A stretch of 23,592 nucleotides of DNA from an uncultured virus (IMG/VR IMGVR_UViG_3300031857_023291) (Duplodnaviria > Heunggongvirae > Uroviricota > Caudoviricetes): IMG/VR virus record IMGVR_UViG_3300031857_023291, one strand, 5' to 3'. This document shows positions 2 to 15,112 of this stretch, one piece after another. The stretch's first letter is position 1, and every line of letters begins with the position of its first letter. The translations under genes were made by a program, and so were the position numbers. Below the pieces are notes generated by a model, which saw only the letters and a program-made list of their open reading frames with translations, did no database searches and had not been told where the DNA came from.

Positions 2-190
2 GATGATATAATCAAATGTATTAAGAAAAGAGGAGTTATTTATTCTACAATTGTTAAAGAGTATCCAGATAATGATCCGAAAGATCCAATCACTCCAGTT
101 GATATAGATGAAGATGGTTTAATCACAGTTGATATAGACGGTAGAGAATACTATGTTGATTTAGATGATGTTGAGAAAATCGAATACTAA
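2..190 (+). CDS. 3' end of hypothetical protein (partial, runs in from window start)
   Basis: Open frame 2 from base 2 (DDIIKCIKKRGVIYSTIVKEYPDNDPKDPITPVDIDEDGLITVDIDGREYYVDLDDVEKIEY) ending TAA 188-190, overlapping the stop of the convergent minus-strand gene; not in the ORF track. Confidence 0.7.
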   Translation, partial: DDIIKCIKKRGVIYSTIVKEYPDNDPKDPITPVDIDEDGLITVDIDGREYYVDLDDVEKIEY

Positions 191-660
191 TCTAAAAGTT
201 TTTTTAATTTCAAATCTCGAAGAATAGATTTTGTTTTTTCATTTATAATTAATGGTATGTCATTTTCACTTCTGTAATTCATCCCAGTGAGGTCATAAAC
301 TAAGTTGTTGTAATTATCGATAATATTTCGCATTATCGATATATGTGGCTCATTATTTCTCCAAAGATTTTTTTTTGGAAATGGTATCCACATATCTATG
401 TTTTTATTATTACAATATTCAATCAAATCTGTTATTTTGTGTGTGTCTTGCATATACACATCAGTGTGAAAAAGTATTAAATTTTTTCCATCTAATTTGT
501 CAAATATTATTTTATCTGGATGATTGCATCCGAACTTAGTCCATAAATATGTTTCTGCCAATTTATGTCGATATAATATCATACATTTTGGTAAATTATA
601 AAAAATATGGAATGTAGCTCTCGCTGCTACATTCCATGCAAGTTTATAATCAATACTCAT
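187..660 (-). CDS. Hypothetical protein with C-terminal RxxKLxxLL tag
   Basis: ORF track 187..699; ATG at 660 (MSIDYKLAW) is more plausible because the longer start lies within a terminator hairpin. Ends ILRDLKLKKLLD. Confidence 0.75.
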   Translation of the reverse strand: MSIDYKLAWNVAARATFHIFYNLPKCMILYRHKLAETYLWTKFGCNHPDKIIFDKLDGKNLILFHTDVYMQDTHKITDLIEYCNNKNIDMWIPFPKKNLWRNNEPHISIMRNIIDNYNNLVYDLTGMNYRSENDIPLIINEKTKSILRDLKLKKLLD

Positions 661-688
661 ATCAAATTCTAGTACATAAATCATAATC

Positions 689-714
689 AAAAAAGTCAAC
701 TTTGAAGTTGACTT
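689..714 (-). terminator. Intrinsic terminator after vWA gene
   Basis: Inverted repeat AAGTCAACTT (693-702) / AAGTTGACTT (705-714), followed by a T-run on the minus strand (A-run 689-694). Confidence 0.65.
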
Positions 715-718
715 ATTT

Positions 719-2182
719 TTATTTGTCGGTATTTTCTACCATAATTTGTTTTACTTTGTTGTTAGTTCTAGATATTGGAACTTTAACACCAATTGAAATC
801 ATTAATACTCTACCTCTAATTTTAGAAAGATCTAAGGAGTCACAATAACCATCTGTCAAAACTACGGTGTTATATTCATTAAACTTCTCAGAAACTAAAT
901 CAATAGCAGGTTGAAGAATGGTACCACCAAGACCTTTGATAACAAGTGTTTCAAGTTTTTTCTTAGATTTAATGTTCTGAATCCATTTCACTTCTGTGTC
1001 AGCCTCAATAAGATTTACTTCAATATCATTTCTGTAGATGTAGGAAAGCACTCTCTCAAAAGTTCCACCCATTGAACCAGATGTATCTAATATACAATTG
1101 ATTTTTGTTTTGACTTTTCGACTACCTTTTAGTCCAGAAATTTGTTTTCTGTTTGGTTTTACTATTGTTTTTTCCTTCACCGTTCCAAAAATCATATTAG
1201 ATACCGCTCTTTTGATTTCACGTAAATAATCTTTGCGTTTCTTACGTAGTTTGTTAAGAGTTTGTTCGACATTACCGGCTGATAATCCACGAGCGGCTAA
1301 TCTTTCCATTACGTCTTTTACCATGCCTTCTCTCATTTCTTCAGGAACATCATCGTTGATGTGCTTATCAAGATACTCACCATTTCCATTTTCCATGTCT
1401 TGAAAAATTTGTTCTTTAGACCAAGTATCAAGTGACTCACCATCTTTAGATGGATTTTTACCATAAGGACCATAAGATGGTTTACCACTAGAGTCTTTAC
1501 CACCCTCATTACCCGTTCCTTGGCAATCTGAACAAGACTCTCCTTCACCAGGATTTTGGCTCTGATCTTGTCCTGGTTGTTGACCTTCACCTTTATCATC
1601 TTGTTTCTCACCTTTACCGTCACCTGGTTGTTGACCATCTTGTTTTTTACCAGAACCACCACAAGATTGACATTGAGAGTTTTGTTTTTGCTCTTTTTGC
1701 CATTTATCTTTTTCTTCTTTTAACCACTCATATAGTTCTTCGAAAATAAGTTTTCCGGTGTATTCTTTTGGAACAAAGAGTGCCATATTTTTACCATCTG
1801 GTGATTTTGGAATTTCAACAAAAGCGTGTGGAATATCCTCCCAGATAACGTGATTAATGATCATGTCTTGAGCAATGTTAGACAATTTATGATCATATTG
1901 ACCTGTAATTGTTCTACGTGGATGGTTAAAAAGAAGGTGAAAGTCCTCGTGAAGAGTAATAAAATTTACTTCTTTCTGAGACATATTTTCTAAAAACTTT
2001 GGTGAATAGTAGAAGTTCATTCCTTTAGATGTAACATTAACCGCACAAGTTCCTATAGAATCTTGTTCGTGAAAATTAACGTGTAGGTTGAACTCACCAT
2101 AGTAAGGTAAATTAACTTTAGTATCAATTAACATGGTTTGAATACCATTAAGTAATTTTTCGTGTATGTTCTTAATTATCAT
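719..2182 (-). CDS. Putative metallopeptidase (HExxH) plus vWA domain protein (DUF2201-like), with CxxCxGxG zinc-finger-like insert
   Basis: HEDFH motif followed by NIAQDMIIN; C-terminal MIDAS DTSGS, GGT and TDG; central CQSCGGSG and CSDCQGTG flank a G/Q/D-rich linker. Confidence 0.85.
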   Translation of the reverse strand: MIIKNIHEKLLNGIQTMLIDTKVNLPYYGEFNLHVNFHEQDSIGTCAVNVTSKGMNFYYSPKFLENMSQKEVNFITLHEDFHLLFNHPRRTITGQYDHKLSNIAQDMIINHVIWEDIPHAFVEIPKSPDGKNMALFVPKEYTGKLIFEELYEWLKEEKDKWQKEQKQNSQCQSCGGSGKKQDGQQPGDGKGEKQDDKGEGQQPGQDQSQNPGEGESCSDCQGTGNEGGKDSSGKPSYGPYGKNPSKDGESLDTWSKEQIFQDMENGNGEYLDKHINDDVPEEMREGMVKDVMERLAARGLSAGNVEQTLNKLRKKRKDYLREIKRAVSNMIFGTVKEKTIVKPNRKQISGLKGSRKVKTKINCILDTSGSMGGTFERVLSYIYRNDIEVNLIEADTEVKWIQNIKSKKKLETLVIKGLGGTILQPAIDLVSEKFNEYNTVVLTDGYCDSLDLSKIRGRVLMISIGVKVPISRTNNKVKQIMVENTDK

Positions 2183-2199
2183 ATTTTTTAATATTTATA

Positions 2200-2207
2200 C
2201 AAATATA
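2200..2207 (-). promoter_or_regulatory. Bacteroidetes-type -7 promoter element TATATTTG
   Basis: TAnnTTTG match in the intergenic gap, 17 nt upstream of the ATG at 2182. Confidence 0.6.
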
Positions 2208-2231
2208 ATATTTATAAATCAATAAACCTAA

Positions 2232-2699
2232 TTATTTTTTTGATTTAGGTTTAATATCAAAGTTTTTAATTTTTTCTAATGTGCTGTCTAACGAGTGATT
2301 TATTTTAGAAAGAACTTCTTTCTTAAATGCATTTCTTCTAATTGACATTTCACGAATAAATTTATCAAGTAAATAACTTTCTAAGTCAGCTCTAATATGA
2401 ACATCGTATCCGAATACCGAATTAATTACTTTAACATTCAATGACTCAAGAAAAACAAAAAGTGTTCTATCCCCAGAGCTTATGTAACATTCTTGAGTTT
2501 GTATATCGTAATATAGTTTACTATCCTTATTGTGTAAGATAGTAAGAAATATTTCACAAACCGTATCTTCAGCCTCAGTCAGTCTTTTTGGCTTTGTTAG
2601 TTTTTTTTCTTTACCTAAAGTTTTGAATAATCTTAGGTAATAAACCTTAATCAATCTTCTGAACCTTGTCAACTTTTTATTAAATTCTTCTTTTGTCAT
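2232..2699 (-). CDS. Hypothetical protein (basic)
   Basis: 155-aa ORF with ATG start, tightly packed in the minus-strand gene array. Confidence 0.75.
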   Translation of the reverse strand: MTKEEFNKKLTRFRRLIKVYYLRLFKTLGKEKKLTKPKRLTEAEDTVCEIFLTILHNKDSKLYYDIQTQECYISSGDRTLFVFLESLNVKVINSVFGYDVHIRADLESYLLDKFIREMSIRRNAFKKEVLSKINHSLDSTLEKIKNFDIKPKSKK

Positions 2700-2706
2700 A
2701 TTATAT

Positions 2707-3093
2707 TTATTTTAAAATTTTATTAAGTTTATTTTCTCTTAGAATAGATTTGACTTGTTTTATTATATTTTCATCATCAGATGGATCACAATCTTGATTT
2801 ATTTTTATATTATCACTAAAAATTAATTTAGCGGTATAAAGACACGCACAAACAACATCATCATAAATTTTTAATTGTGTTTTACAAAAGTTAAGACCAT
2901 TTTTATTTAAAGAAAAGTTAAATGTTTCATGACCATCTTCATCAACACCATTAAATCTAACCTGTGTCTCATTCACGGTCACATCTTCTAAAGAAATTTT
3001 CATACTATCTATAAGAGTCTGGCAGATAGAAGAGAAGTCTTTAAACTTATCACTATCTAATGATTCAAATTCCCAATATCTTGTAAAACCCAT
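2707..3093 (-). CDS. Hypothetical phage protein (MGxTxYW...FCKT...YD type) with C-terminal tag
   Basis: 128-aa ORF; MGFTRYW, GHETF and FCKT..K.YD motifs; ends ILRENKLNKILK. Confidence 0.8.
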   Translation of the reverse strand: MGFTRYWEFESLDSDKFKDFSSICQTLIDSMKISLEDVTVNETQVRFNGVDEDGHETFNFSLNKNGLNFCKTQLKIYDDVVCACLYTAKLIFSDNIKINQDCDPSDDENIIKQVKSILRENKLNKILK

Positions 3094-3097
3094 TTAC

Positions 3098-4408
3098 TTA
3101 ATTACTTGATCCAAATACACCTTTACCGATATCTACAAATCCTTCATCATTTCCTAAATCCATTTCAGTTGATTTATCTTCTTCTTTACTTTCATAAGAA
3201 TTTGAGTTACACAATTTATCAAACTCTTCATCTTGTGCAAATCCAGATTTAATCATTTTAGAGACAAGTTGATGCCAGTTTAATTTACCACGGTATCGAA
3301 ACTCACTGTCAGTGAGTGACATCTTACCATCGATATCTAAAGTCATAATCTTATTATAGATTTCTTTGTCTAATTCAAAGTCTTGATTTGAAATATCATC
3401 AACCTTAGCAATTTTGATTTTGTAGTAACCCTCTGTTAGCATCTTAACAATCACATCACCTTTTAATTTCATAATATCTGAAATCTTAAGAGCGATTTTT
3501 GTTTCTTCTTCACTTAATGACTCCATATCTTTTTGTTCTTCAGACACAAAGAATACATAACCATTAGGTTCATCACCCGATTTCATGCTTTCTAATCTGG
3601 TTTCTAAAACGCCAAGTGCTTCAGACTTTTCTTCTGATTTTGATTCAGCTTGTTTTGCTTCATTTTTGTATCGAATGATTTCTTTTTTTGTTTCTTCAAT
3701 TCGATACTCTAATTCTATAATCTTAGCCTCATTCATCTTACGGAATTGCTCTTCCATATAAGACTCTGCTGCTGTTTTTAATTTCTCATTTGGTGTAGAT
3801 GGATTTTCTACTTCTTCAACGATAGTTTTAACATCTTCTTCTGAAAGGTCGTCTAACACACCATTCATAACTTCTGAAAGTGCGTTATCTTCATCCCACT
3901 CTTCTTCAACTTCATCATCATCAGATGAACCGAATAAATCATCAAGTAAACTCAAACTTTTTTTAGAAACTTCAACTTTATCTTCTTCTTCAAAAAGTGA
4001 CTTTAATTTATTAATTGGTTTGTCGTGTTCAACTTCTAAATAGCAACGGTCACCATTAATATCATTAAACTCTAAACCAGCTACTACAAATTTTTGCGCA
4101 TAACCAGTTACATCTTTATCATCAATATCCGCAATAAGACGTTTAATCATAGATTCATCTGTTAAGTTAGAACCTTTTTGTTCTTCAAAATTAATCGTTC
4201 CTTCATCACAGATTGTTACTTTAAGAATGACACCTTCTAAGACACCTGATAGTTTTTCACCTTTAATAAAGGCAACGTCTCTGATAAAACGAATGCGAGC
4301 ACCATTTACTGCAGAAACAAAGTTTAAGAATTTTCTTTTTGGTTTGAAGTTGCCGATTATTGGTTCAGTTCTTACCTCTACATTTTCGTTTTGAATATCT
4401 TCTTGCAT
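3098..4408 (-). CDS. Acidic hypothetical protein with central coiled coil
   Basis: 436-aa ORF with a D/E-rich stretch and a heptad-like region (KIIELEYRIEETKKEIIRYKNEAKQAE). Confidence 0.85.
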   Translation of the reverse strand: MQEDIQNENVEVRTEPIIGNFKPKRKFLNFVSAVNGARIRFIRDVAFIKGEKLSGVLEGVILKVTICDEGTINFEEQKGSNLTDESMIKRLIADIDDKDVTGYAQKFVVAGLEFNDINGDRCYLEVEHDKPINKLKSLFEEEDKVEVSKKSLSLLDDLFGSSDDDEVEEEWDEDNALSEVMNGVLDDLSEEDVKTIVEEVENPSTPNEKLKTAAESYMEEQFRKMNEAKIIELEYRIEETKKEIIRYKNEAKQAESKSEEKSEALGVLETRLESMKSGDEPNGYVFFVSEEQKDMESLSEEETKIALKISDIMKLKGDVIVKMLTEGYYKIKIAKVDDISNQDFELDKEIYNKIMTLDIDGKMSLTDSEFRYRGKLNWHQLVSKMIKSGFAQDEEFDKLCNSNSYESKEEDKSTEMDLGNDEGFVDIGKGVFGSSN

Positions 4409-4421
4409 AATTATTTTTTTA

Positions 4422-4429
4422 CAAATTTA
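4422..4429 (-). promoter_or_regulatory. Bacteroidetes-type -7 element TAAATTTG
   Basis: TAnnTTTG match 13 nt upstream of the ATG at 4408. Confidence 0.55.
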
Positions 4430-4435
4430 GGAAAA

Positions 4436-4834
4436 TTATATTAAATTATTATCATTAATAATATTAATTTTTGCATCTCTTACTTCTTCTTTAGTCAAAG
4501 GGTCAGGTAGTTTTTTACCATAAACATCAACTATATTATCAGTTTCAATGTATTTATCACCAGATTCTTCAATCAGTATCTGAAGAATTGGATTTAGAGT
4601 TTCTTTATCATCTTGAATTTCAAATATCTCCATTACTTCTTCTCTGAAAGGTTGAAAGTTATAAACAACTGTTGGTTGTTCATCATCATGCTTATCTAAA
4701 CAGACAGTTAATAATAGATATAACTCTTTCTTAGAAAGTAATTTCATATCTTCAACTACATTAACGACATTGAAATTTTTAAAAATATCAACAAACTCCT
4801 TAGATACTTTTAGTTGTTTTGTTTCTTCGCTCAT
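4436..4834 (-). CDS. Hypothetical protein with C-terminal tag
   Basis: 132-aa ORF ending LTKEEVRDAKINIINDNNLI. Confidence 0.8.
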   Translation of the reverse strand: MSEETKQLKVSKEFVDIFKNFNVVNVVEDMKLLSKKELYLLLTVCLDKHDDEQPTVVYNFQPFREEVMEIFEIQDDKETLNPILQILIEESGDKYIETDNIVDVYGKKLPDPLTKEEVRDAKINIINDNNLI

Positions 4835-4836
4835 AT

Positions 4837-5130
4837 TTATTTTAGTATTTCGTTTATTTTACCTTCTCTTAATTTATCAATGTTCATTTCAAAGATAGCG
4901 TTCATGTGTGCTTTTGAAATTTCTTCTTTTTCACCTTTTTCATTTATGACCCAGTATCTACGCCAACCACCATTTAATTTATAAAGTTGATCAGACCAAG
5001 TCTCATATTCACCATCATACCACTTTCCCTCAATAAATCTATCCTCCCATTGAATATTAGACAAAGATAATCCTTTAGGTGAGCTTTGGTGACTACTTCT
5101 CTTACAAAGAAATTTAGTTTTAACTATCAT
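4837..5130 (-). CDS. Small hypothetical protein (CK...GKxY family) with C-terminal tag
   Basis: 97-aa ORF; start overlaps the upstream stop (TAATG); ends KLREGKINEILK. Confidence 0.8.
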   Translation of the reverse strand: MIVKTKFLCKRSSHQSSPKGLSLSNIQWEDRFIEGKWYDGEYETWSDQLYKLNGGWRRYWVINEKGEKEEISKAHMNAIFEMNIDKLREGKINEILK

Positions 5131-5642
5131 TAGATTCCTAATTTTTCTAATTTATACTCACGGTATTCCAATTTAGAAACAGACCCCAATTCATAAGCTC
5201 TATGAAAGAAAACCTCAAAGATTTCTTCATAACCCATTTCTTTAGCGCTCATAGCTCGATTTATTGCCTTCCATTCATCGGTGATTCGATTTGCTTGTGT
5301 TTTTGCGAGTATTATTGCTTTATCTACATCACCGCCAGATTTAGTCCAAATATCACTAACTCTAACTTTATTCTTTTCAAACTCAGCTTTGGTTTGACCG
5401 TTGTATTTTCCTTCTTTTAGACCTCTCATATAATTTTCTGTTAATTTATGAAGACAATTATAAAATCCATATTTTAATCTTTGACCATTCCACTCAAAGG
5501 TTGCTGTAAGATTTTGCTCGTAGATTTCTCCAGTATCTCTATTCTTTTTTCTTGTAATTTTTCCTTTATACCAGAACCAATAACAATTCGTTCTTTCTAC
5601 TTCGAGATAATCTCGAAATTGTAAATTAGTCCATTTATCCAT
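5130..5642 (-). CDS. Hypothetical protein with C-terminal tag
   Basis: ORF track 5130..5666; ATG at 5642 (MDKWTNLQF) follows the stop of a small upstream gene; ends YREYKLEKLGI. Confidence 0.8.
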   Translation of the reverse strand: MDKWTNLQFRDYLEVERTNCYWFWYKGKITRKKNRDTGEIYEQNLTATFEWNGQRLKYGFYNCLHKLTENYMRGLKEGKYNGQTKAEFEKNKVRVSDIWTKSGGDVDKAIILAKTQANRITDEWKAINRAMSAKEMGYEEIFEVFFHRAYELGSVSKLEYREYKLEKLGI

Positions 5643-5643
5643 A

Positions 5644-5769
5644 TTAAATTGTACAAAGTAAAGCAAAAACTAACCAACCCCAACCATTAACTCCTGCGAA
5701 AGCAAGAATAGTAATACCAGCAATTAAACCTAATTGTAATAATGTTTTATTTGTTATCTTTTCATTCAT
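5644..5769 (-). CDS. 41-aa small membrane protein
   Basis: Translated by hand: MNEKITNKTLLQLGLIAGITILAFAGVNGWGWLVFALLCTI. It fills the gap between genes, sits directly behind a promoter and is not in the ORF track. Confidence 0.75.
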   Translation of the reverse strand: MNEKITNKTLLQLGLIAGITILAFAGVNGWGWLVFALLCTI

Positions 5770-5773
5770 CCTA

Positions 5774-5804
5774 CAAATATAAGAATAAATTTAAAATAAA
5801 CAAA
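5774..5804 (-). promoter_or_regulatory. Complete Bacteroidetes sigma-A type promoter TTTG-N19-TATATTTG
   Basis: Minus strand TTTG at 5804-5801, 19-nt spacer, TATATTTG at 5781-5774, ATG 4 nt downstream. Confidence 0.75.
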
Positions 5805-5807
5805 AGA

Positions 5808-6563
5808 TTAATTCAAAATATCATCAATGCGATTATTGCGAGACCATGTTATATCAGATTCTCTTACAATTTCTGACTGACTATATTGTATTATTTGACC
5901 TTTAGTGATCATCTTACAAATCTCATAATTCAGTGAAAAGTCTTTTCCATTTTTTTGAGGAATAAAATCCAAAATAAGATAATCCTCTGATTGATCACCA
6001 ACTTTTGTAACAATATCACCAATTGAGAATCTAGTTAAAGTGTGTTCACCTCCATCTTCATCATATCCCCAGATTTTAGAAAATATTTCAATTGTATCTT
6101 CCAAAAACATAACATAAGCCATTATTGATGATAAGTGACCTTCAAATTCATAAGTTAATTTAGTGTACTCTTTTTCTTTTACTTTGTGGTCAATTTGTTT
6201 CTTTGATTTAATAATAGAGTCTGATACTTCAATATCACCTATTTTCTCTCGATTACTATTATCAACAAAAAGTGTTTTTGTCTCTATTTTATTTGTGAAC
6301 CATTTATTAAAAATATGAAAGAAATTATCTACTCTATTTTTAGCAACCGAAAAAGAAAATTGAAATTTCATATGTGGATCCAATGTCACTACCTCTGATT
6401 CTGGATCAGAACCAAAAGAGCCAAGTCCATATTTAAGCCTTTGCTTAAAAACAATAGCAGGAAAGGAATTATGTGTGCTATATTTTGGAAAAACATGATA
6501 AGGTGTATTTTCCAGTCTATCATTCCAATTTAAAATTTCACTATCTGATAAGTATTTTTTCAT
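5808..6563 (-). CDS. Hypothetical protein with C-terminal SH3-like segment and C-terminal tag
   Basis: 251-aa ORF; FSIGDIV motif near the C-terminus; ends SRNNRIDDILN. Confidence 0.8.
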   Translation of the reverse strand: MKKYLSDSEILNWNDRLENTPYHVFPKYSTHNSFPAIVFKQRLKYGLGSFGSDPESEVVTLDPHMKFQFSFSVAKNRVDNFFHIFNKWFTNKIETKTLFVDNSNREKIGDIEVSDSIIKSKKQIDHKVKEKEYTKLTYEFEGHLSSIMAYVMFLEDTIEIFSKIWGYDEDGGEHTLTRFSIGDIVTKVGDQSEDYLILDFIPQKNGKDFSLNYEICKMITKGQIIQYSQSEIVRESDITWSRNNRIDDILN

Positions 6564-6567
6564 ATTT

Positions 6568-7059
6568 TTATTTTTTTATCCAAATTACCGCAATGTACTT
6601 TGTACCAAACTCAACTGGTAAACCAGCGTGTATACTATCTTTATTTACTTTACCATCACTATCTAAATTTTCCCAAATGATAAGTTTGCCAGTTTCTGGT
6701 TTTATTTTATTATTAACCTTCGGAAAAAAAGTTTCACCACCTACAAAACTATTATTTAAGTATATCAGTGCGGTCTTTGATCTTGAAGCCCCATCATGAT
6801 GTTCTTTGTACTCACCATTTGGCTCATATTTAACAAAATGAAAATCTTCTTGATTTTTTTGAGGTAGATTTGCAAGTTCTGATACTTCTAATTTTATCCT
6901 ATCTACAAGTGGGTGGTCATTGAACCACCTAACTTTAGCCTTTCTATAACCAAGTCGATTTCCTGTGGTAGTGCCGGCTCTGAGTTGACCAGATTCACCT
7001 AAACTTATTAGTGTTTCGCACTCTTGTTGTGTAAGAAAATTTTTATATTCAGTTATCAT
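6568..7059 (-). CDS. 2OG-Fe(II) oxygenase, prolyl 4-hydroxylase-like
   Basis: N-terminal NFLT..EC; KY..GEYKEHHD (HxD); LIYLN...GGET.FP; distal H in SIHAGLPV; GTKY. Confidence 0.9.
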   Translation of the reverse strand: MITEYKNFLTQQECETLISLGESGQLRAGTTTGNRLGYRKAKVRWFNDHPLVDRIKLEVSELANLPQKNQEDFHFVKYEPNGEYKEHHDGASRSKTALIYLNNSFVGGETFFPKVNNKIKPETGKLIIWENLDSDGKVNKDSIHAGLPVEFGTKYIAVIWIKK

Positions 7060-7291
7060 CTAATATCTCGTTAATTTTTGAATTTCTCATTTCATCGATG
7101 GTTGTAAAATATTTATCAAAAATATTCATAGTTAAAGGTATTTTTTCACCACTTTCAGATTGTGACCATAATATAAGGCCGCTTTTATACTCAAACTCAG
7201 ATGGAGGTGTCGTCTGGTATATTTTTCCTTTAGCACATATAACCCTTTTTTCATCTGGATCGAACATCGTTCTTTTGCAGTAAATGAACAC
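7049..7291 (-). CDS. Small hypothetical protein (CK...GKxY family) with C-terminal tag
   Basis: 80-aa ORF with GTG start; ends EMRNSKINEILDDN. Confidence 0.7.
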   Translation of the reverse strand: MFIYCKRTMFDPDEKRVICAKGKIYQTTPPSEFEYKSGLILWSQSESGEKIPLTMNIFDKYFTTIDEMRNSKINEILDDN

Positions 7292-7296
7292 TCATA

Positions 7297-7599
7297 TTAT
7301 TTAGTTTTTGTATCAAAATCAACATTAACATTTGTGATTTGATTAAGTTTTATTTCTCTCATTAATTGAATAAAATATCTTTCTAAATCCGCCACAGAAT
7401 TAAATTCAACGCCTATATAACTACTCTTACTATCAAAACACAAAAAGTTGCCAGAAGAATAGATATGTTGATATTGGGTTACTCCTGGGATGATAATAAT
7501 ACTATCTATATCATTACCATTGTAACCGGGATCAACCTCATCTTTAGTATACCATTTGATACTAACAACTTTTGGTGTTTCTTTAGTTATTCTCAACAT
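7297..7599 (-). CDS. Hypothetical protein with C-terminal-proximal tag
   Basis: ORF track 7297..7623; ATG at 7599 (MLRITKE) is more likely; contains LMREIKLNQIT near the end. Confidence 0.7.
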   Translation of the reverse strand: MLRITKETPKVVSIKWYTKDEVDPGYNGNDIDSIIIIPGVTQYQHIYSSGNFLCFDSKSSYIGVEFNSVADLERYFIQLMREIKLNQITNVNVDFDTKTK

Positions 7600-8401
7600 A
7601 ATCTTTAATTCTTTTGTTAGCAACCTCTATGTATTCTATTTGTTTCTCAAATCCAATAAAATTTCTACCAAGTTTTTTTGAAGAAACGGCTGTTGTTCCA
7701 GTTCCCATAAAAGGATCTAAAACCAAATCACCTTCATCAGTTGAGCCTTTTATAAAATAATCAACTAACTCAACTGGATAAACAGCAACGTGATTATCTG
7801 CTATTCTTTTAGCCTCAGATGATATATTAATTAGTGTTGTAGGAAGTGCGCCTTTTGGATTTGGTTCCCAATTCTTATATTGTTTATTAGTTTGATTTTG
7901 TTCGTCTCTAGCAAATCTCTTAATGAGAGGATTTTTCATTCTTTGAATAGACTTCTCAGCATATGGCGTTCTCATTTCATCGATATTAAATTTGAATCCT
8001 TTTTCTTTTGCGAACCAAAAAAGATATTCAACTCTATCACCAAATCTACTTTTATTGGGAAGACTTTTTAATTTATTCCAAAAAAGCCTTTCAAATAGTT
8101 TTAAATCTGTTCTTTTATGAATTTCAGAAATCAGTTCAAAAACATAGGGATGTCTAAACCCGCCTTCTACTTTGTCATTGATATTTAAAATAAAAGAACC
8201 TGTCGGTTTAATAACACGACAGATTTCATTACAATAAGGTAAAAACCATTCAACATAATTATCAGCTAGTATTCCTGGATTATCGATATAAACTTTCAAG
8301 TCAGCATAGGGTGGTGAAGTAATAACTAAATCAACTGAGTTATCATCTAATTCTTTCAAAAGTGATAAGGATTCTCCGTGAAATATTTTATTTAATTCCA
8401 T
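7583..8401 (-). CDS. Site-specific DNA methyltransferase, beta class (N4-cytosine/N6-adenine)
   Basis: Catalytic motif IV VDLVITSPPY near the N-terminus; H.A.YP..L; SAM-binding VLDPFMGTGTT near the C-terminus. Confidence 0.92.
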   Translation of the reverse strand: MELNKIFHGESLSLLKELDDNSVDLVITSPPYADLKVYIDNPGILADNYVEWFLPYCNEICRVIKPTGSFILNINDKVEGGFRHPYVFELISEIHKRTDLKLFERLFWNKLKSLPNKSRFGDRVEYLFWFAKEKGFKFNIDEMRTPYAEKSIQRMKNPLIKRFARDEQNQTNKQYKNWEPNPKGALPTTLINISSEAKRIADNHVAVYPVELVDYFIKGSTDEGDLVLDPFMGTGTTAVSSKKLGRNFIGFEKQIEYIEVANKRIKDYVENN

Positions 8402-8404
8402 TGA

Positions 8405-8980
8405 TTACATTTCTTTACTTTTCTTATCAAGAAATTCTTTTTCTTCTATAGTCAAAGAATTCATTCCATTGTTAGCTATTTTGTCAAGTATATCATCAAT
8501 ATCAAGAGATACATTGTAATCACTTTTGACTAAGTCTTTAATCATTTCGAAAGAAACTACTGATTTATCAACATCTGGAATAGAATTTTTCACACTTTGA
8601 TTATTATGGTACTCAAATTCAACAAGCATTTTGACTTTTGTGATTTCACTTACAATATCTTTGATAATTTGAGGCAAAAAATCTTTAATTCTATTAGATA
8701 GTACAAATTGTCCTACTTTAAGAGTTAATTCGACTCTTACTTTCGACAATTCAAATTCGACTCTTTGATTGTATTCCATTTTAGAACACTTTTCAAATAA
8801 TTCTGTATAGTATTTTTCTTTATCTTCTACTTTCGGATGAAAAAACCCATAAGAGTATAAAAATTCAACTTTATCAACATTTATATCCTTACCCGTTAGT
8901 TTCTCAGCTATTTCTATCCATTCTGTAACTTGTGGATAATCGTGAAAAACTTCTTCTTTTGTAGCTAAAATTGTAAACAT
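8405..8980 (-). CDS. Hypothetical protein with C-terminal DUF6576-like module
   Basis: 191-aa ORF ending DIDDILDKIANNGMNSLTIEEKEFLDKKSKEM. Confidence 0.8.
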   Translation of the reverse strand: MFTILATKEEVFHDYPQVTEWIEIAEKLTGKDINVDKVEFLYSYGFFHPKVEDKEKYYTELFEKCSKMEYNQRVEFELSKVRVELTLKVGQFVLSNRIKDFLPQIIKDIVSEITKVKMLVEFEYHNNQSVKNSIPDVDKSVVSFEMIKDLVKSDYNVSLDIDDILDKIANNGMNSLTIEEKEFLDKKSKEM

Positions 8981-9026: not shown

Positions 9027-9461
9027 TTATTTGTCTCCCAATAGGTTAGACAATCTACCAGATCGAAACTCAGATAGACTTATTCCCTTAGCTATTTCTA
9101 AAAGTGTATCTTCTACATCTGAAATCGACGGTGACATATCTTTACAGAAGTTTGTTAAGATTGAATTTCTTAACTTTAGTGTCTCACCATCACTTCTGAA
9201 TGAACTGACTAACATCATGGTATCTGGTAGCTTATTGTTTCTAATCCAAAGAGAAGCTTCATCGTCAATTACCCAGTTATCATTTTTGAGAAGATATTTA
9301 ATCTCTATCTCATACTTAGTCCCATCTTCACCTTCTGAGAACATCTTTCTTTTGAATGATCTGTTTGGGTGATTCGGATCTTCTTCCTTCCAAATCATTA
9401 TATTTTTATCGGTATATAAAGTAAGACTTTTAACTATTTCTATTATTCTATCTTTCAACAT
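9027..9461 (-). CDS. Hypothetical protein with C-terminal tag
   Basis: 144-aa ORF ending EFRSGRLSNLLGDK. Confidence 0.8.
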   Translation of the reverse strand: MLKDRIIEIVKSLTLYTDKNIMIWKEEDPNHPNRSFKRKMFSEGEDGTKYEIEIKYLLKNDNWVIDDEASLWIRNNKLPDTMMLVSSFRSDGETLKLRNSILTNFCKDMSPSISDVEDTLLEIAKGISLSEFRSGRLSNLLGDK

Positions 9462-9660: not shown

Positions 9661-9662
9661 AA

Positions 9663-10145: not shown

Positions 10146-10173
10146 TTTTTATTTTGTTTTTAATTGTTACTTA

Positions 10174-10545
10174 TTATATTCCTAATACTTTGAGTTTATC
10201 CTCTCTTAATGAGATTTTATTTGGTTTAAAAGTTGTCTTGATATAATCAAACCACTCAGACCAATTATCAAATACTGGTTCTGAATACCATCTATCTAAA
10301 TCTTTAGATGAAACAGCATCTTCTTGTAGAGAATAAAGTGACATAATTTTTTCTCTATCTGACTCTTTGAGATTGTTCCACCAATACTTATCAATTTTTG
10401 TAATCAAAAACTTTTGATAAAATAAAGTTAATCGTTGTTGTTTTTCTCTACGAATCTGTCTTTCTGACCTCTGTGACCAAAATCCGACTTCACCGTCTCT
10501 TTGTTTTTCTTGGTATTTTGCAAATCTTTTATCTTGATATTTCAT
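10174..10545 (-). CDS. Hypothetical protein with C-terminal tag
   Basis: 123-aa ORF with ATGA overlap with the upstream gene; ends SLREDKLKVLGI. Confidence 0.8.
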   Translation of the reverse strand: MKYQDKRFAKYQEKQRDGEVGFWSQRSERQIRREKQQRLTLFYQKFLITKIDKYWWNNLKESDREKIMSLYSLQEDAVSSKDLDRWYSEPVFDNWSEWFDYIKTTFKPNKISLREDKLKVLGI

Positions 10546-11033
10546 ACTATTATATTATCAATTTTCATATTTCTTAAAACAACTTTGATGTTGTTTTTAT
10601 TTCCATCTAAGATTTCATCAACAAATTTATTTGTTCTATGGTGTAATCCCGGTTTATCTGGATCATCTGATATCATGCTCATTGAACCAATGTATTCCTC
10701 AAACTTCTCAGACATTAATACTATACTCAAATTTTGAGTTGAGTAAAGATACATCAAAATATTTTTTAATTTAAGATTTATATCTTTTGTGTTTGGTCCA
10801 TTATTGTACTTTCTCCACATTTTCCAATATTTATTGAAAAAGTCGGTCATATCATCTGGTGTGTATAACTTACTTTCAACCGTTGGTTCAAATCCAATCC
10901 AGTGATTATATTTCTCAAGAATATAGTCTGGACTTTGTTTTAAAAGGTCACAACTATCCACATACTTACTGAAATTAACATTGAATTTAGTAAGATTAAC
11001 AATTTTATTATATTCTTTATCTAAAGATATCAT
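10542..11033 (-). CDS. Hypothetical protein with C-terminal tag
   Basis: 163-aa ORF ending VLRNMKIDNIIV. Confidence 0.8.
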   Translation of the reverse strand: MISLDKEYNKIVNLTKFNVNFSKYVDSCDLLKQSPDYILEKYNHWIGFEPTVESKLYTPDDMTDFFNKYWKMWRKYNNGPNTKDINLKLKNILMYLYSTQNLSIVLMSEKFEEYIGSMSMISDDPDKPGLHHRTNKFVDEILDGNKNNIKVVLRNMKIDNIIV

Positions 11034-11037
11034 TTTA

Positions 11038-11045
11038 CAAATATA
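11038..11045 (-). promoter_or_regulatory. Bacteroidetes-type -7 element TATATTTG (probably leaderless transcript)
   Basis: TATATTTG-TAAA-ATG; start codon at 11033. Confidence 0.65.
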
Positions 11046-11093
11046 AACAAAAAAACTGGTTCTTTATATATAACTTAAAATATATTTTTTAAA

Positions 11094-12038
11094 ATGAAGA
11101 TTAAACATAAAGTAGTCAAAGAATTCCAGTATCTAAGTCCAGATAAAAAAATCTTTATACTTAAAGTTGGAACTTTACTTCAAGAGTATAACTACACAGT
11201 AAAATCCGAAATTATTCCAATTGATAAAGATATCATCGATAATAATCCGGAATTTTTTGAAGTCGTAGACTGGAAGAGTGAATTATTAACACATATGCGG
11301 GCTAATAAGTTTCCAACACCTACTCAGTTTCATAAAAAATTAGTTCCTTTTATTGAAGAAATGGTCCTTTCATCTATTCAACAAAACTCAGGACCAGTTT
11401 CAACTATCGATGAATCTAAAGTAAGAGAAGTTGAATGGAAAGAAATTGACCTTAATAATAGAGAAAAGAGAATCAAAGATAAAGAAGAAGAAATTGATAT
11501 TCGTTTAAAAAGAGTTGAGAAAAGAGAAGAGGATCATAAATCAGAGCTGAAATCTTTAGATAAAAAGGAGGATGAGTTAAGGTCAAGATCAAGAGAGCTT
11601 ACTGAGAAGCAATTAGGTTTAGAAGATAAACTACAAGACTTAAATGAAAAAGAAAGAAACTTTGATAGGAGTGTTTTAGAATCTGCTAAGGATTTAGATG
11701 TTAAGTATGCCGACTTACAAAATAAAATTGATGACGACTTAAAGAAAGTTACTGATAAAGAAAAAGAATTAGAAAATTTATCTAAGGAATTAAGAAGAAA
11801 AGAGGAAGACCTTCTTCAAAAAGAATCAGATTTGATAGAGTTAGAAAAATTAATTCAAATCAAAATAGAGGAAATTAATTTAGAGGAAGATTCATTAATG
11901 AAGCTAAGTCAAGAAATAAAAGATTGGGAATCACTACATTGGAAGTTTCAAAGAAACACAAAACCACCTTCGGCTATTCCTGATTCTATTTCACAAAGTT
12001 TATTAAGTAAATACCCAGGGCTTATAAATATTAAATAA
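11094..12038 (+). CDS. Coiled-coil protein
   Basis: 314-aa ORF whose C-terminal half is a long E/K/R/L heptad coiled coil; preceded by TTTATATATA. Confidence 0.85.
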   Translation: MKIKHKVVKEFQYLSPDKKIFILKVGTLLQEYNYTVKSEIIPIDKDIIDNNPEFFEVVDWKSELLTHMRANKFPTPTQFHKKLVPFIEEMVLSSIQQNSGPVSTIDESKVREVEWKEIDLNNREKRIKDKEEEIDIRLKRVEKREEDHKSELKSLDKKEDELRSRSRELTEKQLGLEDKLQDLNEKERNFDRSVLESAKDLDVKYADLQNKIDDDLKKVTDKEKELENLSKELRRKEEDLLQKESDLIELEKLIQIKIEEINLEEDSLMKLSQEIKDWESLHWKFQRNTKPPSAIPDSISQSLLSKYPGLINIK

Positions 12039-12062
12039 AGAGGACTTAAAGTCCTCTTTTTT
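12037..12062. terminator. Intrinsic terminator between convergent genes, likely bidirectional
   Basis: AAAGAGGACT-TAA-AGTCCTCTTT perfect inverted repeat (12037-12059), extending into a T-run on the + strand. Confidence 0.8.
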
Positions 12063-12408
12063 ATGATTTTAATTTTTTGATTTGGTCACGCAATTGAGCT
12101 GCTTTTTCAAACTCTTCTTTTTCAATTGCTTCTTTTAAAGCCGATTCAAGCATTTTAACATCAACTTTTGGTTTTTGATTTTTACTTTCAGAATAAGTTC
12201 TGGTGAATTTATATCTACCATCTGTACTAACCCAAGTTTCTTTTTTAATAATGTGGGTATCAGATTCTGTTTCTTCAATAGTTTTGTTGTAGCGACTATC
12301 ATTATCTTTTGGAAAGTATTCATCGTCGCTTTTAGAAAAGTCACTAAACATATTTTTAGATGTTAGTGAAAATAGATCTGATAGGTCAAATAAATAAATT
12401 TTTCTCAT
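12061..12408 (-). CDS. UvrB/UvrC (UVR) motif-containing protein
   Basis: C-terminal LESALKEAIEKEEFEKAAQLRDQIKKL matches the UVR coiled-coil motif of UvrB/UvrC/ClpC/McsA. Confidence 0.85.
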   Translation of the reverse strand: MRKIYLFDLSDLFSLTSKNMFSDFSKSDDEYFPKDNDSRYNKTIEETESDTHIIKKETWVSTDGRYKFTRTYSESKNQKPKVDVKMLESALKEAIEKEEFEKAAQLRDQIKKLKS

Positions 12409-12428
12409 AGTTTTAGTTTTTTTTCTTA

Positions 12429-12475
12429 CATATTGTCAAATTATAGACCAAAATATAATTTATGTCATATTGTCA
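12429..12475. repeat. Direct repeats CATATTGTCA x2 (TGTCA x3) upstream of UVR gene
   Basis: CATATTGTCA at 12429-12438 and 12466-12475; a third TGTCA at 12463-12467. Confidence 0.55.
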
Positions 12476-12509
12476 TATTTACTTACAATTAAAATAAATA
12501 GATAAAAAG

Positions 12510-12527
12510 TTAATATATAGATTATGA
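12510..12527 (+). promoter_or_regulatory. Putative phage (late-type) promoter/start motif TTAATATATAGATTATGA
   Basis: Identical 18-mer at 20878-20895; both copies end in the start codon. Confidence 0.6.
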
Positions 12528-13270
12528 CCGAATTAAAAAGACTTTATAACTATTTAAAAAAGAATCCTAAAAAGAAGATTCTTTTCTTAACCACATCGAA
12601 TAGATGGTCTGGTGATAAAGAGCTTCCAAAGTCTTCTATCATTGCTGAAGAAATTATGAAAAAATTGGGAGATGATAGATGTCAAATTATGAATGTCGCA
12701 AAACTTAAAATATTTGCTTGTGAAGGTAATGTTTCAACTAAAAGAGGAAATACTTGTGGATTAAAAGATGCTATACTTAAAGATAAAGAAAAAAATCCAA
12801 CAGGACATATAAGATGTTGGGCATCGCTTAATAACAAGTCTGATGAAATGTATAAAGTAGCAAATGCTATTTTTGAATCAGACATAGTAATTTTCTTTGG
12901 ATCAATCAGATGGGGTAAGATGAATGCTATTTACACATCACTTATTGAGAGATTAACTTGGCTTGAAAACAGACACACAACACTTGGTGAGAGCAACTTA
13001 CTTAAGAATAAAGAAGCTGGAGTAATTGCAGTTGGGCACAACTGGAATGGTTCAGAAGCCGTCAAGTTAGAAAAAGAAGTATTAAGTTTCTTTGGATTTA
13101 AAACACCACAACAACTATCATTTAATTGGCAATTCCTTAAAAACGCAAATGACGAATCTAAAGAGGGTTACGTTGAAGAATTCGGGAAGTTTTTAACAGA
13201 TTTTAATTTCGTAGAAAACTTACAAGAAGCAATACTCAGATTCAAAGATTGGTATAAAAGCCAAAATTAA
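12524..13270 (+). CDS. Flavodoxin-like NAD(P)H-dependent FMN reductase / iron-sulfur-flavoprotein-like protein
   Basis: KILFLTTSNR...S; Cys cluster (ACEG..TCG..RCW); SDEM....AI.ESDIVIFFGSIRWG; LKNKEAGVIAVG. Confidence 0.75.
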   Translation: MTELKRLYNYLKKNPKKKILFLTTSNRWSGDKELPKSSIIAEEIMKKLGDDRCQIMNVAKLKIFACEGNVSTKRGNTCGLKDAILKDKEKNPTGHIRCWASLNNKSDEMYKVANAIFESDIVIFFGSIRWGKMNAIYTSLIERLTWLENRHTTLGESNLLKNKEAGVIAVGHNWNGSEAVKLEKEVLSFFGFKTPQQLSFNWQFLKNANDESKEGYVEEFGKFLTDFNFVENLQEAILRFKDWYKSQN

Positions 13271-13293
13271 TATATTAAGAATATCATGATGTT

Positions 13294-13644
13294 TCATGAT
13301 TGTTGATTCTGACTGGTTTTTTTTAATTTCTCTTTAAACAACAATAATGAAAAAATTTTGTTTTCCTTAATTAAATCACTTGTTCTTTCTTTACACCATT
13401 CTAAATCCTTCACTCTTTTTTTTGCGTAAATTACATAATAAGTAGTGTATTTTTTTTTGAAATTTATAACATCCCAGTTTTTTATTAAATAAGATAAAGA
13501 AACATTAATGTAACTATCACGCGCTGAAAACTTGTTTATATTTTCATATAAATAATTTATTGTTGATTCTATACTATTTGAAGAGTCTGAAAACTTTTCT
13601 AAAATTTTTTTATCAATAAATGATTCTATTTTTTCAGGTGCCAT
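13294..13644 (-). CDS. Hypothetical protein (paralog of 13644..14015)
   Basis: 116-aa ORF sharing the Y..I.AK....DL.W.K and FK.KLK motifs with its neighbour. Confidence 0.7.
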   Translation of the reverse strand: MAPEKIESFIDKKILEKFSDSSNSIESTINYLYENINKFSARDSYINVSLSYLIKNWDVINFKKKYTTYYVIYAKKRVKDLEWCKERTSDLIKENKIFSLLLFKEKLKKTSQNQQS

Positions 13645-14015
13645 TACGATGATTTAGATTTAGTTTTTAATTTTTTTTTAAATTCAATTAAATTATGTAG
13701 CTCAATTAGCGTTTTGTTTTGGAATTTATGACTATTGTCTTTCATCCAAAATAAATCTTCAATTTTTTCTTTAGCAACAATGATGAAATACAGAGCGTAA
13801 AGTCCTCTATGTGTAATATCAAGTTCTTCTAAACAAATATATTTAAAAGGAATATTTGCTAAATAAGTCAAGTCTGTCTTTTCTTTGCTAAGTAATTTTG
13901 AAATATTTAATTTTCTAACTTGTAAATCGACCATAATCTTTTCAAGTGAGTCGCCATTAGTAAGTCCTATTTTTACTATATTATTTATATTATTAGAGAC
14001 CAAGTCGATATTCAT
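13644..14015 (-). CDS. Hypothetical protein (paralog of 13294..13644)
   Basis: 123-aa ORF, TAATG-coupled to the downstream gene. Confidence 0.7.
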   Translation of the reverse strand: MNIDLVSNNINNIVKIGLTNGDSLEKIMVDLQVRKLNISKLLSKEKTDLTYLANIPFKYICLEELDITHRGLYALYFIIVAKEKIEDLFWMKDNSHKFQNKTLIELHNLIEFKKKLKTKSKSS

Positions 14016-14019
14016 TTTA

Positions 14020-14027
14020 CAAAGATA
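14020..14027 (-). promoter_or_regulatory. Bacteroidetes-type -7 element TATCTTTG (probably leaderless transcript)
   Basis: TATCTTTG-TAAA-ATG; start codon at 14015. Confidence 0.6.
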
Positions 14028-14056
14028 GTAAAAAGTTTATGATATAGTTTGTTTTA

Positions 14057-14626
14057 TTATGAATTTTTTTTGAATAAATCATAATGATTTATTAATAGAT
14101 AAATTATAGCAAAAATAGAACCGAATATATGAGCCCAATGACCAATATTGTCATTGGTTCCTACAATAACATAATAAAACTCAAGTATTATTAGTGAGAT
14201 AGAAATTATATTTATAAGTTTTAATGATACTAATTTTTTGTATCTTTCACTTCTTAATGAAATAAAAATTGAAGCTGACATTACAGCGAAAACAGCACCA
14301 GATGAACCTATGATGGCACCATCAACACCTAAGCAGTATAATCCAGAACTAAATATACCTGAAAATAAATAAAATGATAGAAATTTTTTTCCTAAAAATT
14401 TCTCTACTTCAGTACCAAAAACTAAAAGGAAAAACATATTAAAAAAAAGATGATCTATGTTTTCGTGAATAAAAAGATGAGATATTAATTGGTATGGTGA
14501 AAAGTAATTAGAGGTAACTGGATAAAGAGCCAATATATTATCAAAGTATAAACCATAGATAGATAAAAAATTTAAAATGCCAAATGCAACAATGTTTATA
14601 ATCAATATTTTACTAACATAACTCAT
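14057..14626 (-). CDS. Rhomboid family intramembrane serine protease
   Basis: Multiple hydrophobic helices; HENIDHLFFNM; G..VE...G; catalytic GSSG; HWAHIFG. ATG at 14626 (track gives GTG 14635). Confidence 0.92.
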   Translation of the reverse strand: MSYVSKILIINIVAFGILNFLSIYGLYFDNILALYPVTSNYFSPYQLISHLFIHENIDHLFFNMFFLLVFGTEVEKFLGKKFLSFYLFSGIFSSGLYCLGVDGAIIGSSGAVFAVMSASIFISLRSERYKKLVSLKLINIISISLIILEFYYVIVGTNDNIGHWAHIFGSIFAIIYLLINHYDLFKKNS

Positions 14627-14786
14627 CTTTGTCACGATTATCCATTACTATTCTTTTACAACCAAGACATACAATGACAGGACCATTTTGTGTCATAATA
14701 ATTCTTCTCTCACACTTCATTTGACAATCTTTTTCACCAACTGGTGCAAAATCATCCTCTATTTTGCGAAGCTTTTTATTTTTCAT
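14613..14786 (-). CDS. 57-aa small Cys-rich (zinc-ribbon-like) protein
   Basis: Translated by hand: MKNKKLRKIEDDFAPVGEKDCQMKCERRIIMTQNGPVIVCLGCKRIVMDNRDKDELC. ATGA overlap with the upstream stop; fills the gap; not in the ORF track. Confidence 0.7.
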   Translation of the reverse strand: MKNKKLRKIEDDFAPVGEKDCQMKCERRIIMTQNGPVIVCLGCKRIVMDNRDKDELC

Positions 14787-15112
14787 ATAATACCTTTTAT
14801 AATAAGTTCTCTTCTTAATGATTTCAATAAACTCAATTCATCTTCAAATTGATTAAAATCATTTGTTAATTTTTTTATTTGTTCATTCAATAGTGACAAA
14901 GATAAGGATTTTTTATTATATTTTATCCAATCCTCTTTGATATAAATAGGCATTTGAGATATATCGAATATTTTTTGTTCCTCTTCTACCAAAAAAGAAT
15001 ATTCACCATCTTTTTCTATCAAAATCGTCAAATAATTATCTAAACTGTAATAATTGATTTTAGATGTGGTAGTGATGTGATTCCACGGACTTACATTAAT
15101 TTCTCTTTTCAT
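14783..15112 (-). CDS. Hypothetical protein with degenerate C-terminal tag
   Basis: 109-aa ORF ending LKSLRRELIIKGII. Confidence 0.75.
   Translation of the reverse strand: MKREINVSPWNHITTTSKINYYSLDNYLTILIEKDGEYSFLVEEEQKIFDISQMPIYIKEDWIKYNKKSLSLSLLNEQIKKLTNDFNQFEDELSLLKSLRRELIIKGII

Follow-up and report, generated by a model that had tools for sequence, protein, structure and literature searches.

The capsid-targeting sequence (CTS) of phage T4 is located at the N-terminus of its carriers and is removed by the prohead protease after L/I-x-E. It is a short conserved peptide found on very diverse small internal proteins, where it serves as a label for the scaffolding core, as set out in PMC3012670. 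The DNA examined in this study is a stretch of 23,592 nucleotides (the window) that spans bases 13651–37242 of a single virus contig of 67,754 bp with 29.5% G+C (IMG/VR record IMGVR_UViG_3300031857_023291), and eleven of the proteins it encodes end in one and the same short peptide of about 13 residues, here called the tail. The tail resembles the CTS, carried in T4 by IPI, IPII, IPIII and Alt, in that both belong to the same phage family and both place one short peptide on otherwise diverse proteins (12 carrier families, compared in 66 pairs). It differs from the CTS in being C-terminal, in having another sequence and in having no shared cleavage site. T4 also has only a handful of CTS carriers, whereas these phages have 31–66 tail carriers per record.

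Degrons and docking peptides read by AAA+ machines include the ssrA tag, the C-terminus of MuA that is recognized by ClpX, and the C-terminal peptide of SspB that binds the ClpX N-domain. Like these, the tail is a short, portable C-terminal peptide with basic and aliphatic residues, and relatives of this phage encode a ClpA-like unfoldase and two ClpP proteins. The tail is longer than those peptides, which are not helices built around an invariant Arg and most of which need a free C-terminus; of the 125 unique tails collected here, 55 are extended past the motif. In addition, the phage unfoldase has no recognizable N-domain, since its first AAA match begins at residue 86 and leaves no room for a Clp N-domain. 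The MIM1 helix of ESCRT-III proteins, which docks on the MIT domain of the AAA+ ATPase Vps4, is similar in being a C-terminal amphipathic helix with a conserved Arg in a Leu-rich face, common to several proteins and read by one ATPase N-domain. Its residue register is different, though, MIM1–MIT pairs are eukaryotic and archaeal, and no MIT-like domain was found in these phages. The first-pass annotation of the window had not recognized the tail as a named signal, and we agree: our full-text literature searches gave no description of the motif (supplements and subscription journals were outside their scope). In a comparison of the tail profile with PDB sequences the best E value was 0.47.

Open reading frames (ORFs) were called mechanically as the longest non-overlapping frames of at least 40 aa, chosen greedily, and the last 25 aa of each ORF were counted as C-terminal. 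Across the 91 ORFs of the whole contig, the pattern R-[DENS]-x-[KR]-[IL]-x-x-[IL] was matched at 12 of 1,638 C-terminal positions and at 1 of 19,321 internal positions, an excess with a Fisher p of 6e-13 for a pattern defined post hoc on the same data. Shuffling either the whole proteins or only their last 25 residues (2 × 2,000 shuffles) gave means of 0.07 and 0.12 matches and never more than 2. Eleven of the 12 strict matches fall inside the window, with the twelfth at contig 38840–39208 (+). Tails were also scored with a position matrix built from 123 unique tails. A score of 15 or more was reached by 48 of 750 real C-termini from the contig and its near relative G001, compared to 2 of 1,554 pseudo-C-termini generated by random truncation of proteins; 0.4% of the pseudo-C-termini reach 5 or more.

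All eleven tails of the first-pass annotation were found at their positions on minus-strand ORFs (Table 1), and the Arg is the 10th residue from the C-terminus in 7 of 11, as had been reported. The additional RELIIKGII, described as a degenerate twelfth, is also where it was placed, with a borderline matrix score. The low score of REDKLKVLGI, a strict match, is due to the matrix under-weighting the LGI ending. The claim that the tail is absent from the recognizable enzymes, lipoproteins and plus-strand genes of the window agreed with Pfam and matrix scoring. Its Arg codon varies as had been described (CGA, AGA, CGT and CGC were all found), several Ile and Leu codons are used, and the tail DNA differs between carriers, so that conservation is at the protein level.

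The window has DNA-level matches to deposited phage records only in its vWA-metallopeptidase gene (719–2182), which is 76–78% identical to genes of the uncultured huge phages LR745206.1 (634,780 bp) and LR756502.1 (642,428 bp). G001, with 483,262 bp, encodes a gp23-type capsid, a gp20-type portal, a T4-type terminase and gp32, which makes the clade T4-like. The tail was present in every related huge-phage contig examined. In 17 non-self loci around the vWA gene, two pairs of which are near-duplicates, 102 matches were C-terminal and 7 internal. Three large records were scanned whole, giving 36 C-terminal and 10 internal matches over the 659 ORFs of G001, where internal positions are about eleven times as many as C-terminal ones and the carriers are dispersed along the genome, 31 and 7 over the 424 ORFs of G005, and 66 and 11 over the 527 ORFs of G004, in which the "...L-G-I" ending predominates. 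In LR745206.1, 13 of the 74 ORFs in a 41.5-kb stretch syntenic with the window are carriers. The tail sits on about 6–13% of the proteins of this uncultured clade of T4-like huge phages. A single narrow codon pattern was matched 66 times in IMG/VR, with about 22 of these matches lying on contigs of 100 kb or longer, and is too narrow to gauge spread.

Orthologues of the carriers keep the tail. The 251-aa carrier (5808–6563) has 177 homologues, and of the 120 listed, 118 have S-R-[ND]-x-R-I-[DN]-D-I-L at the C-terminus, with identities as low as 45%; the two tail-less exceptions are shorter entries of 207 and 161 aa. Of its 23 invariant columns, R242, R245, I246, I249 and L250 belong to the tail. 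A small P-loop carrier keeps the tail in 9 of 9 homologues, and orthologues flagged as tail-less mainly have degenerate versions with Gln or Asn at +3 (positions are counted from the Arg as 0). The family of ORF 3098–4408 behaves differently, as the tail accompanies an extra C-terminal stretch in 5 of 15 orthologues, about 150–200 aa long in five loci and about 300 aa in the LR745206.1 homologue, and the window copy is without the stretch. As only orthologues with the extra stretch have the tail, the tail can travel with a module.

The motif takes the form of an optional S/T/D cap followed by phi-x-x-phi-R-[D/E/N]-x-[K/R]-[I/L]-x-x-[I/L]-[L/I or G-I], where phi is a hydrophobic residue, and the protein usually ends one residue later. 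Position −5 is frequently T, D or S, −4 is K, I, L or V, and −1 is aliphatic; +1 is mainly D, E or N, +3 is K or R (101:23), +4 and +7 are nearly exclusively I or L, and +8 is L, I or G with a polar residue after it. Counting back from the C-terminus, the Arg is residue 10 in 65 of 125 unique tails and residue 9 to 14 in 109. When the 16 non-Arg columns of the matrix were used to pick windows scoring at least 10, the C-terminal ones had Arg in 137 of 138 cases and Lys in one, compared to Arg in only 4 of 22 internal ones. In 296 orthologue pairs the Arg codon had 164 synonymous and 0 non-synonymous differences. With the pattern relaxed at one position, 124 of 152 C-terminal matches had Arg at position 0, and the others were spread over 8 residues with 2–5 each; this count is the less biased figure for the Arg preference, as the tails used for the matrix and the codon count were picked with Arg-requiring patterns. 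At the protein level the tail is under strong purifying selection, and the near-absolute preference for Arg over Lys suggests that the Arg makes a specific hydrogen-bonded contact.

Outside the tail, the sequences of the carriers are not alike. BLASTP of the window carriers with their tails removed gave no E value better than 0.13, and hhalign of the 12 carrier families without tails gave a top probability of 3.7% over the 66 pairs; when two family profiles were compared with their tails on (A1 and A4), the alignment covered only 10 tail residues. The carriers are thus unrelated and are not full-length paralogues of one family. None of the 12 window proteins has a Pfam match above the curated cut-off or a significant PHROG match, and 43 further carriers from relatives had only three weak Pfam matches (a small P-loop NTPase, a UVR motif and a TacA1-like stretch), none of which covers the tail. 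Carriers have a median length of 121 aa, compared to 162 aa for all ORFs; they are mostly acidic, with hydrophobic segments in 3 of 48, and in this they are similar to the other small proteins of these phages. Isoelectric point and crude counts of hydrophobic segments were tried as carrier markers and did not separate the carriers from other small proteins. Overall, the carriers are mostly small, soluble proteins that are similar neither to each other nor to anything detectable outside the clade.

An AlphaFold model of the 251-aa family (mean predicted local distance difference test, pLDDT, of 87.2; predicted template modelling score of 0.83) places a short helix at residues 243–250 that makes no contact with the body of the protein. 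Residues 244–251 have a pLDDT below 50 and hold 4 of the 23 invariant columns, with R242 just upstream. Foldseek with the body of this carrier found nothing in the PDB at an E value of 0.001 or less. An AlphaFold2 model of the 97-aa carrier has a helix at residues 84–96, which corresponds to motif positions −4 to +8. From the one confident model, the tail is predicted not to pack on its own protein, and such high conservation without intramolecular packing suggests that the tail binds some other molecule. In a helix of 2–4 turns the conserved residues share one side, and the Arg is about 17 degrees from the direction of the hydrophobic moment, near the middle of the apolar face. The mean moment of the tails is 0.27 and the 13-residue core has a mean net charge of +0.9; the lipid-binding discriminant, with the HeliQuest formula and thresholds, averages 0.55, and 65% of tails score under 0.68.

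The explanation we favour, to which we give about an even chance, is that the tail is a portable C-terminal docking helix that is read by a single conserved partner. In such a scheme the helix would fold only once bound to the partner, the I/L residues and the invariant Arg would insert into a groove of that partner, and many different proteins would thereby be gathered at one machine or place. Modularity, purifying selection and the lack of self-packing are the properties expected of an address label with a common partner, and we infer that one partner reads the tail and that it is phage-encoded. The first-pass annotation had proposed that the tail is an address label for a cohort of early proteins. 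The tail is indeed modular, conserved at the protein level and, in the one confident model, unpacked, but no receptor was identified and promoter motifs were not enriched: the −7 and −10 promoter words showed no enrichment upstream of carriers, and the full Bacteroidetes-type promoter pattern had 2 matches in the window with 1.9 expected.

These phages encode an unusual set of protein-handling machines, and our tentative best guess for the partner is this machinery, meaning Hsp70–DnaJ–GrpE, the N-domain-less ClpA-like ATPase with its two ClpP proteins, or a MoxR-like ATPase working with the vWA-metallopeptidase, in which case the tail would single out a group of accessory proteins to be chaperoned, processed or removed at a set time. 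Hsp70 is encoded on the contig itself by Pfam, and G001 has two ClpP proteins, the ClpA-like ATPase, Hsp70, DnaJ, an intein-bearing J-domain protein and GrpE. All 5 of the 5 relatives searched have the ClpA-like ATPase, with 69–82% identity. Each of the three large records (G001, G004 and G005) has a pair of genes between grpE and dnaJ, where bacterial operons usually have dnaK. The intervening genes are scored carriers in G001 and G005 and have degenerate tails below the matrix cut-off in G004, where two further small ORFs precede dnaJ, and the phage Hsp70 gene is 6 kb (G001, G005) to 16 kb (G004) from the operon.

The vWA gene has the densest cluster of carriers on its flanks, both in the window and in LR745206.1 and most of the 17 related loci. 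The vWA-metallopeptidase (phrog_1314), one candidate reader, is the most conserved gene adjoining the cluster, with 66–91% identity across relatives, 79–100% identity among 120 listed metagenome homologues and 1,929 homologues at an E value of 1e-10 or less. For the MoxR–vWA pair of T4-like jumbo phages, a role in both the assembly and the processing of virions has been proposed (Iyer et al. 2021, PMC7824862). A search for MoxR with PF07726 found nothing in five relatives, and PF07728 had weak matches to a protein of about 380 aa, 10–15 kb from the vWA gene, that also matches phrog_1297 "ATPase" (E = 3e-47) and is not on our contig. Co-folding of the vWA-metallopeptidase with the 97-aa carrier, run without controls, scored 0.00 and 0.01 against a mark of 0.32 and has no bearing on binding. 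The neighbourhood links of the tail to the vWA gene and to grpE–dnaJ are suggestive only. As a separate observation, the vWA-metallopeptidase has two invariant C-x-x-C-x-G-x-G motifs (C171, C174, G176, G178 and C217, C220, G222, G224) that resemble the DnaJ zinc finger and lie within a Gly/Gln/Lys-rich linker of variable length.

Other candidate readers were considered and set aside. An M16 peptidase was dropped as it occurs in only 2 of 5 relatives. A Bcs1-like AAA protein is found in 3 of 3 large relatives at 46–56% identity and has an uncharacterized N-terminal part of about 190 aa in G001, but no finding connects it with the tail. A shortlist of readers drawn from genes common to G001, G004 and G005 was abandoned, as these records overlap only in part, and 22 conserved unknowns scanned with PHROGs yielded no candidate. 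Mimicry of a host signal was also considered, and the tail profile had 14 matches in four Cytophagales-type genomes, all with an E value of at least 0.13 and none C-terminal among the nine inspected, which is a weak negative as the host is not established.

Several points weigh against the docking helix and its assignment to protein handling. No Clp, DnaJ or GrpE gene was found by Pfam on the 67.7-kb contig, which CheckV estimates to be 21% complete. Since carriers make up 6–13% of genes, some adjacency to these machines is expected by chance, and the link to protein handling is one of gene neighbourhood and co-occurrence only. Acidic residues at +1, +5 and +6 make the tail unlike classical DnaK-binding peptides. 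The apparent invariance of the Arg is inflated by the Arg-requiring selection of matrix and orthologue tails. Of the 60 tails in which the Arg is not 10th from the end, 55 have 1–15 further, polar residues after the motif and 5 end one residue earlier, and with such extensions the tail is a poor fit to a degron for which the C-terminus must be free. For the 97-aa carrier the model has low confidence (mean pLDDT 58.2) and adds little, and the charge and hydrophobic segments of the carriers, being like those of other small proteins, give no clue to their destination.

A wider proposal, which we regard as doubtful, is a proteome-wide sorting code in huge T4-like phages in which the 13-residue C-terminal helix is read by a phage-encoded receptor. 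An adaptor of the ClpA-like/ClpP pair, the phage Hsp70 system or the prohead scaffold could be this receptor, through which tens of accessory proteins, unrelated to one another, would collectively undergo timed removal, chaperoning or loading into the capsid. A tag on 6–13% of proteins would offer an experimental entry to the genes of huge phages, most of which have no known function, as a single pull-down with the peptide could identify the machinery acting on dozens of uncharacterized proteins and thereby show what the cohort does. Should a phage protease, a phage chaperone or the prohead scaffold turn out to read the tail, it would be a portable signal for controlling how stable a cargo is, or whether it is packaged, in phages that infect Bacteroidota-type hosts.

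An unlikely alternative to the docking helix is that the tail is a capsid-targeting signal, a C-terminal counterpart of the T4 CTS by which small proteins dock on the prohead scaffold, are packaged and are injected with the DNA. The T4-like head genes of the clade agree with this, as do carriers that are small, diverse and without known families, and tens of packaged proteins would be plausible for a capsid holding 480–640 kb. The tail is at the wrong end for a CTS, though, and no more than 35 of 123 tails have Glu at −2, with no common cleavage site. Upstream of carriers there is no enrichment of the T4 late-promoter word (2 of 37 against 35 of 621), although the word is not validated for this clade, and the carriers lie among DNA-metabolism and chaperone genes rather than head genes. 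We keep this alternative because this phage family has one known example of diverse proteins with only a targeting peptide in common, the internal proteins of T-even phages (PMC3012670).

It is quite unlikely that the tails are self-association helices that bind each other within or between carriers to give multivalency or co-assembly. A short amphipathic helix at a free end, as modelled at residues 243–250 and 84–96 of the two carriers, would suit such a role, and co-assembly of different carriers would also need a common sequence. The hydrophobic positions (−4, −1, +4, +7 and +8) do not form a heptad, which makes the tail unlike a coiled coil, and Arg and Lys are found in the apolar face. 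Ordinary coiled-coil oligomerization helices also need no invariant Arg and drift freely between unrelated proteins.

Very unlikely, in our view, is a tail without any common reader, either a stabilizing end-cap or a module spread by recombination that protects from C-terminal proteolysis or aids folding. Many tails do show a capping pattern at the very end (either the last residue is polar or there is Gly and then Ile or Leu), the carriers are short and without relatives outside the clade, and in the family of ORF 3098–4408 the tail comes and goes with an extra stretch. Against this, a near-invariant Arg and the narrow choice of I/L at +4 and +7 across 12 unrelated families exceed what a generic cap would need, the confident model shows no packing of tail on body, and the tail DNA is dissimilar, which excludes recent copying.

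More improbable still is an in-plane membrane anchor or nucleic-acid-binding helix that brings carriers to the membrane or to DNA. The membrane-targeting ends of MinD and FtsA are C-terminal amphipathic helices of a similar general form, and the tail has two basic residues and a net positive charge. Its low hydrophobic moment and low discriminant, together with an Arg that is central in the apolar face and not on its rim, make it unlike a lipid-binding helix, and a role that depended on charge alone would permit Lys to replace Arg, which almost never occurs (137:1).

In PIP boxes a polar position 1 is followed by hydrophobic positions 4, 7 and 8, a spacing equal to that of the tail, and the clamp-binding tails of T4 are C-terminal. 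The least probable reading, in which the tail would load accessory proteins on a phage or host sliding clamp in the manner of a PIP box or of T4 gp43/gp33/gp55, could draw on this spacing, on the T4-like clade and on a gp44-like clamp-loader ATPase, but the C-terminal half of the G001 family B DNA polymerase ends in ...RRLSVVMDIFGGFK (last residues VVMDIFGGFK), a hydrophobic/aromatic motif of another class without Lys at +3 or an acidic +1, which is evidence against the clamp as reader, aromatics are rare in the tail (Phe at +8 in 5 of 123), and no gp45-type clamp was detected with PF02916 in five records.

Table 1. Tails in the window, the vWA-metallopeptidase gene beside them, and protein-handling genes of related records (window positions unless a record or locus is named)
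Feature	Position	Strand	ORF or context	Matrix score	Tail in orthologues
RDLKLKKLLD + stop	187..219	-	170-aa ORF 187-699, directly downstream of the vWA-metallopeptidase gene	27.9	full or degenerate tail kept in 8
RENKLNKILK + stop	2707..2739	-	128-aa ORF 2707-3093	27.4	2/2
RDAKINIINDNNLI + stop	4436..4480	-	132-aa ORF 4436-4834; Arg 14th from end	29.2	10/11 score 15 or more; 11th degenerate
REGKINEILK + stop	4837..4869	-	97-aa ORF 4837-5130		7/7
REYKLEKLGI + stop (LGI variant)	5130..5162	-	178-aa ORF 5130-5666		9/12 score 15 or more; other 3 have Gln instead of Lys at +3
RNNRIDDILN + stop	5808..5840	-	251-aa ORF 5808-6563		
RNSKINEILDDN + stop	7049..7087	-	80-aa ORF 7049-7291	31.2	8/8
REIKLNQIT, then 11-aa polar extension + stop	7297..7359	-	108-aa ORF 7297-7623	29.5	9/9
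RSGRLSNLLGDK + stop	9027..9065	-	144-aa ORF 9027-9461	18.4	4/4
REDKLKVLGI + stop (LGI variant)	10174..10206	-	123-aa ORF 10174-10545; strict-pattern match	10.8	
RNMKIDNIIV + stop	10542..10574	-	163-aa ORF 10542-11033	20.4	2/2
RELIIKGII + stop (degenerate)	14783..14812	-	109-aa ORF 14783-15112	8.1 (borderline)	
vWA domain fused to N-terminal HExxH metallopeptidase (DUF2201_N + DUF2201)	719..2182	-	non-carrier; Pfam		
ClpP paralogues and unfoldase of G001	L024:628-1386, L025:14605-15276, L039:9339-11453		704-aa ClpA-like double AAA+		
grpE, two small tail-bearing genes, dnaJ	G001 352898-355487 (L041:10898-13487)	-			
grpE, two small tail-bearing genes, dnaJ	G004 118678-121705				
grpE, two small tail-bearing genes, dnaJ	G005 75819-78205				

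The remainder of the contig gives some indication of the host. A Pfam scan of the other 79 contig ORFs found a split type II topoisomerase, an N6/N4 methylase, a 2OG oxygenase, a rhomboid protease, the Hsp70 noted above, a subtilase, a NusG-like protein, a PrkA–DUF444–SpoVR trio and two proteins with the CHU_C domain of type IX secretion. The CHU_C proteins (contig 5395–7584, −, and 62210–62776, +) are accompanied by SprB and PKD repeats, which hints at a Bacteroidota host and a phage that may exploit the secretion route of its host; with CHU_C domains in a phage, the hosts of the tail-bearing clade are probably Bacteroidota. The trio of PrkA, DUF444 (YeaH-like) and SpoVR is complete and lies outside the window at contig 44676–49449 (−), with Pfam E values of 1e-149 to 1e-170. 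The best bacterial matches of the phage PrkA are 66–69% identical, and those from Cytophagales and gammaproteobacteria are equally good.

The related records have features of their own. Only 92 of the 659 ORFs of G001 have homologues in both G004 and G005, nearly all of them at 289–463 kb of G001, and the head genes are outside this shared set, which conflicts with CheckV completeness estimates of 91–98%; either these estimates are unreliable for the clade or the records are mosaic. In G001 the J-domain protein with an intein is at L035:4548–6323 (+), a PhoH-like protein with a LAGLIDADG domain is at L034:3989–5830 (−), and the family B DNA polymerase is split into two genes about 95 kb apart (L026:4001–5311, −, and L031:9954–11492, +).

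Other proteins of the window also have recurring ends. A DUF6576 module, with the signature ...D-I-D-[DE]-I-L-D-K-I...S-L-T-I-E-E-[KR]-x-F-L-D, ends two proteins at 8405–8980 (−) and 15096–15722 (−), which are paralogues over about 118 aa (36% identity, E = 4e-10) and one of which starts with a hydrophobic segment; the rhomboid protease gene (14057–14635, −) lies between them. A 115-aa protein at 12061–12408 (−) ends in a UVR motif of the UvrB/UvrC type (E = 1.1e-9), the same C-terminal motif that is found on the bifunctional-nuclease protein of G001, and this may be another helical end-module that is reused in these phages. Finally, the adjacent genes at 13294–13644 (−) and 13644–14015 (−) share a stretch of 30 residues (33% identity, E = 5e-6) and similar Lys-rich ends, and are probably diverged tandem paralogues.

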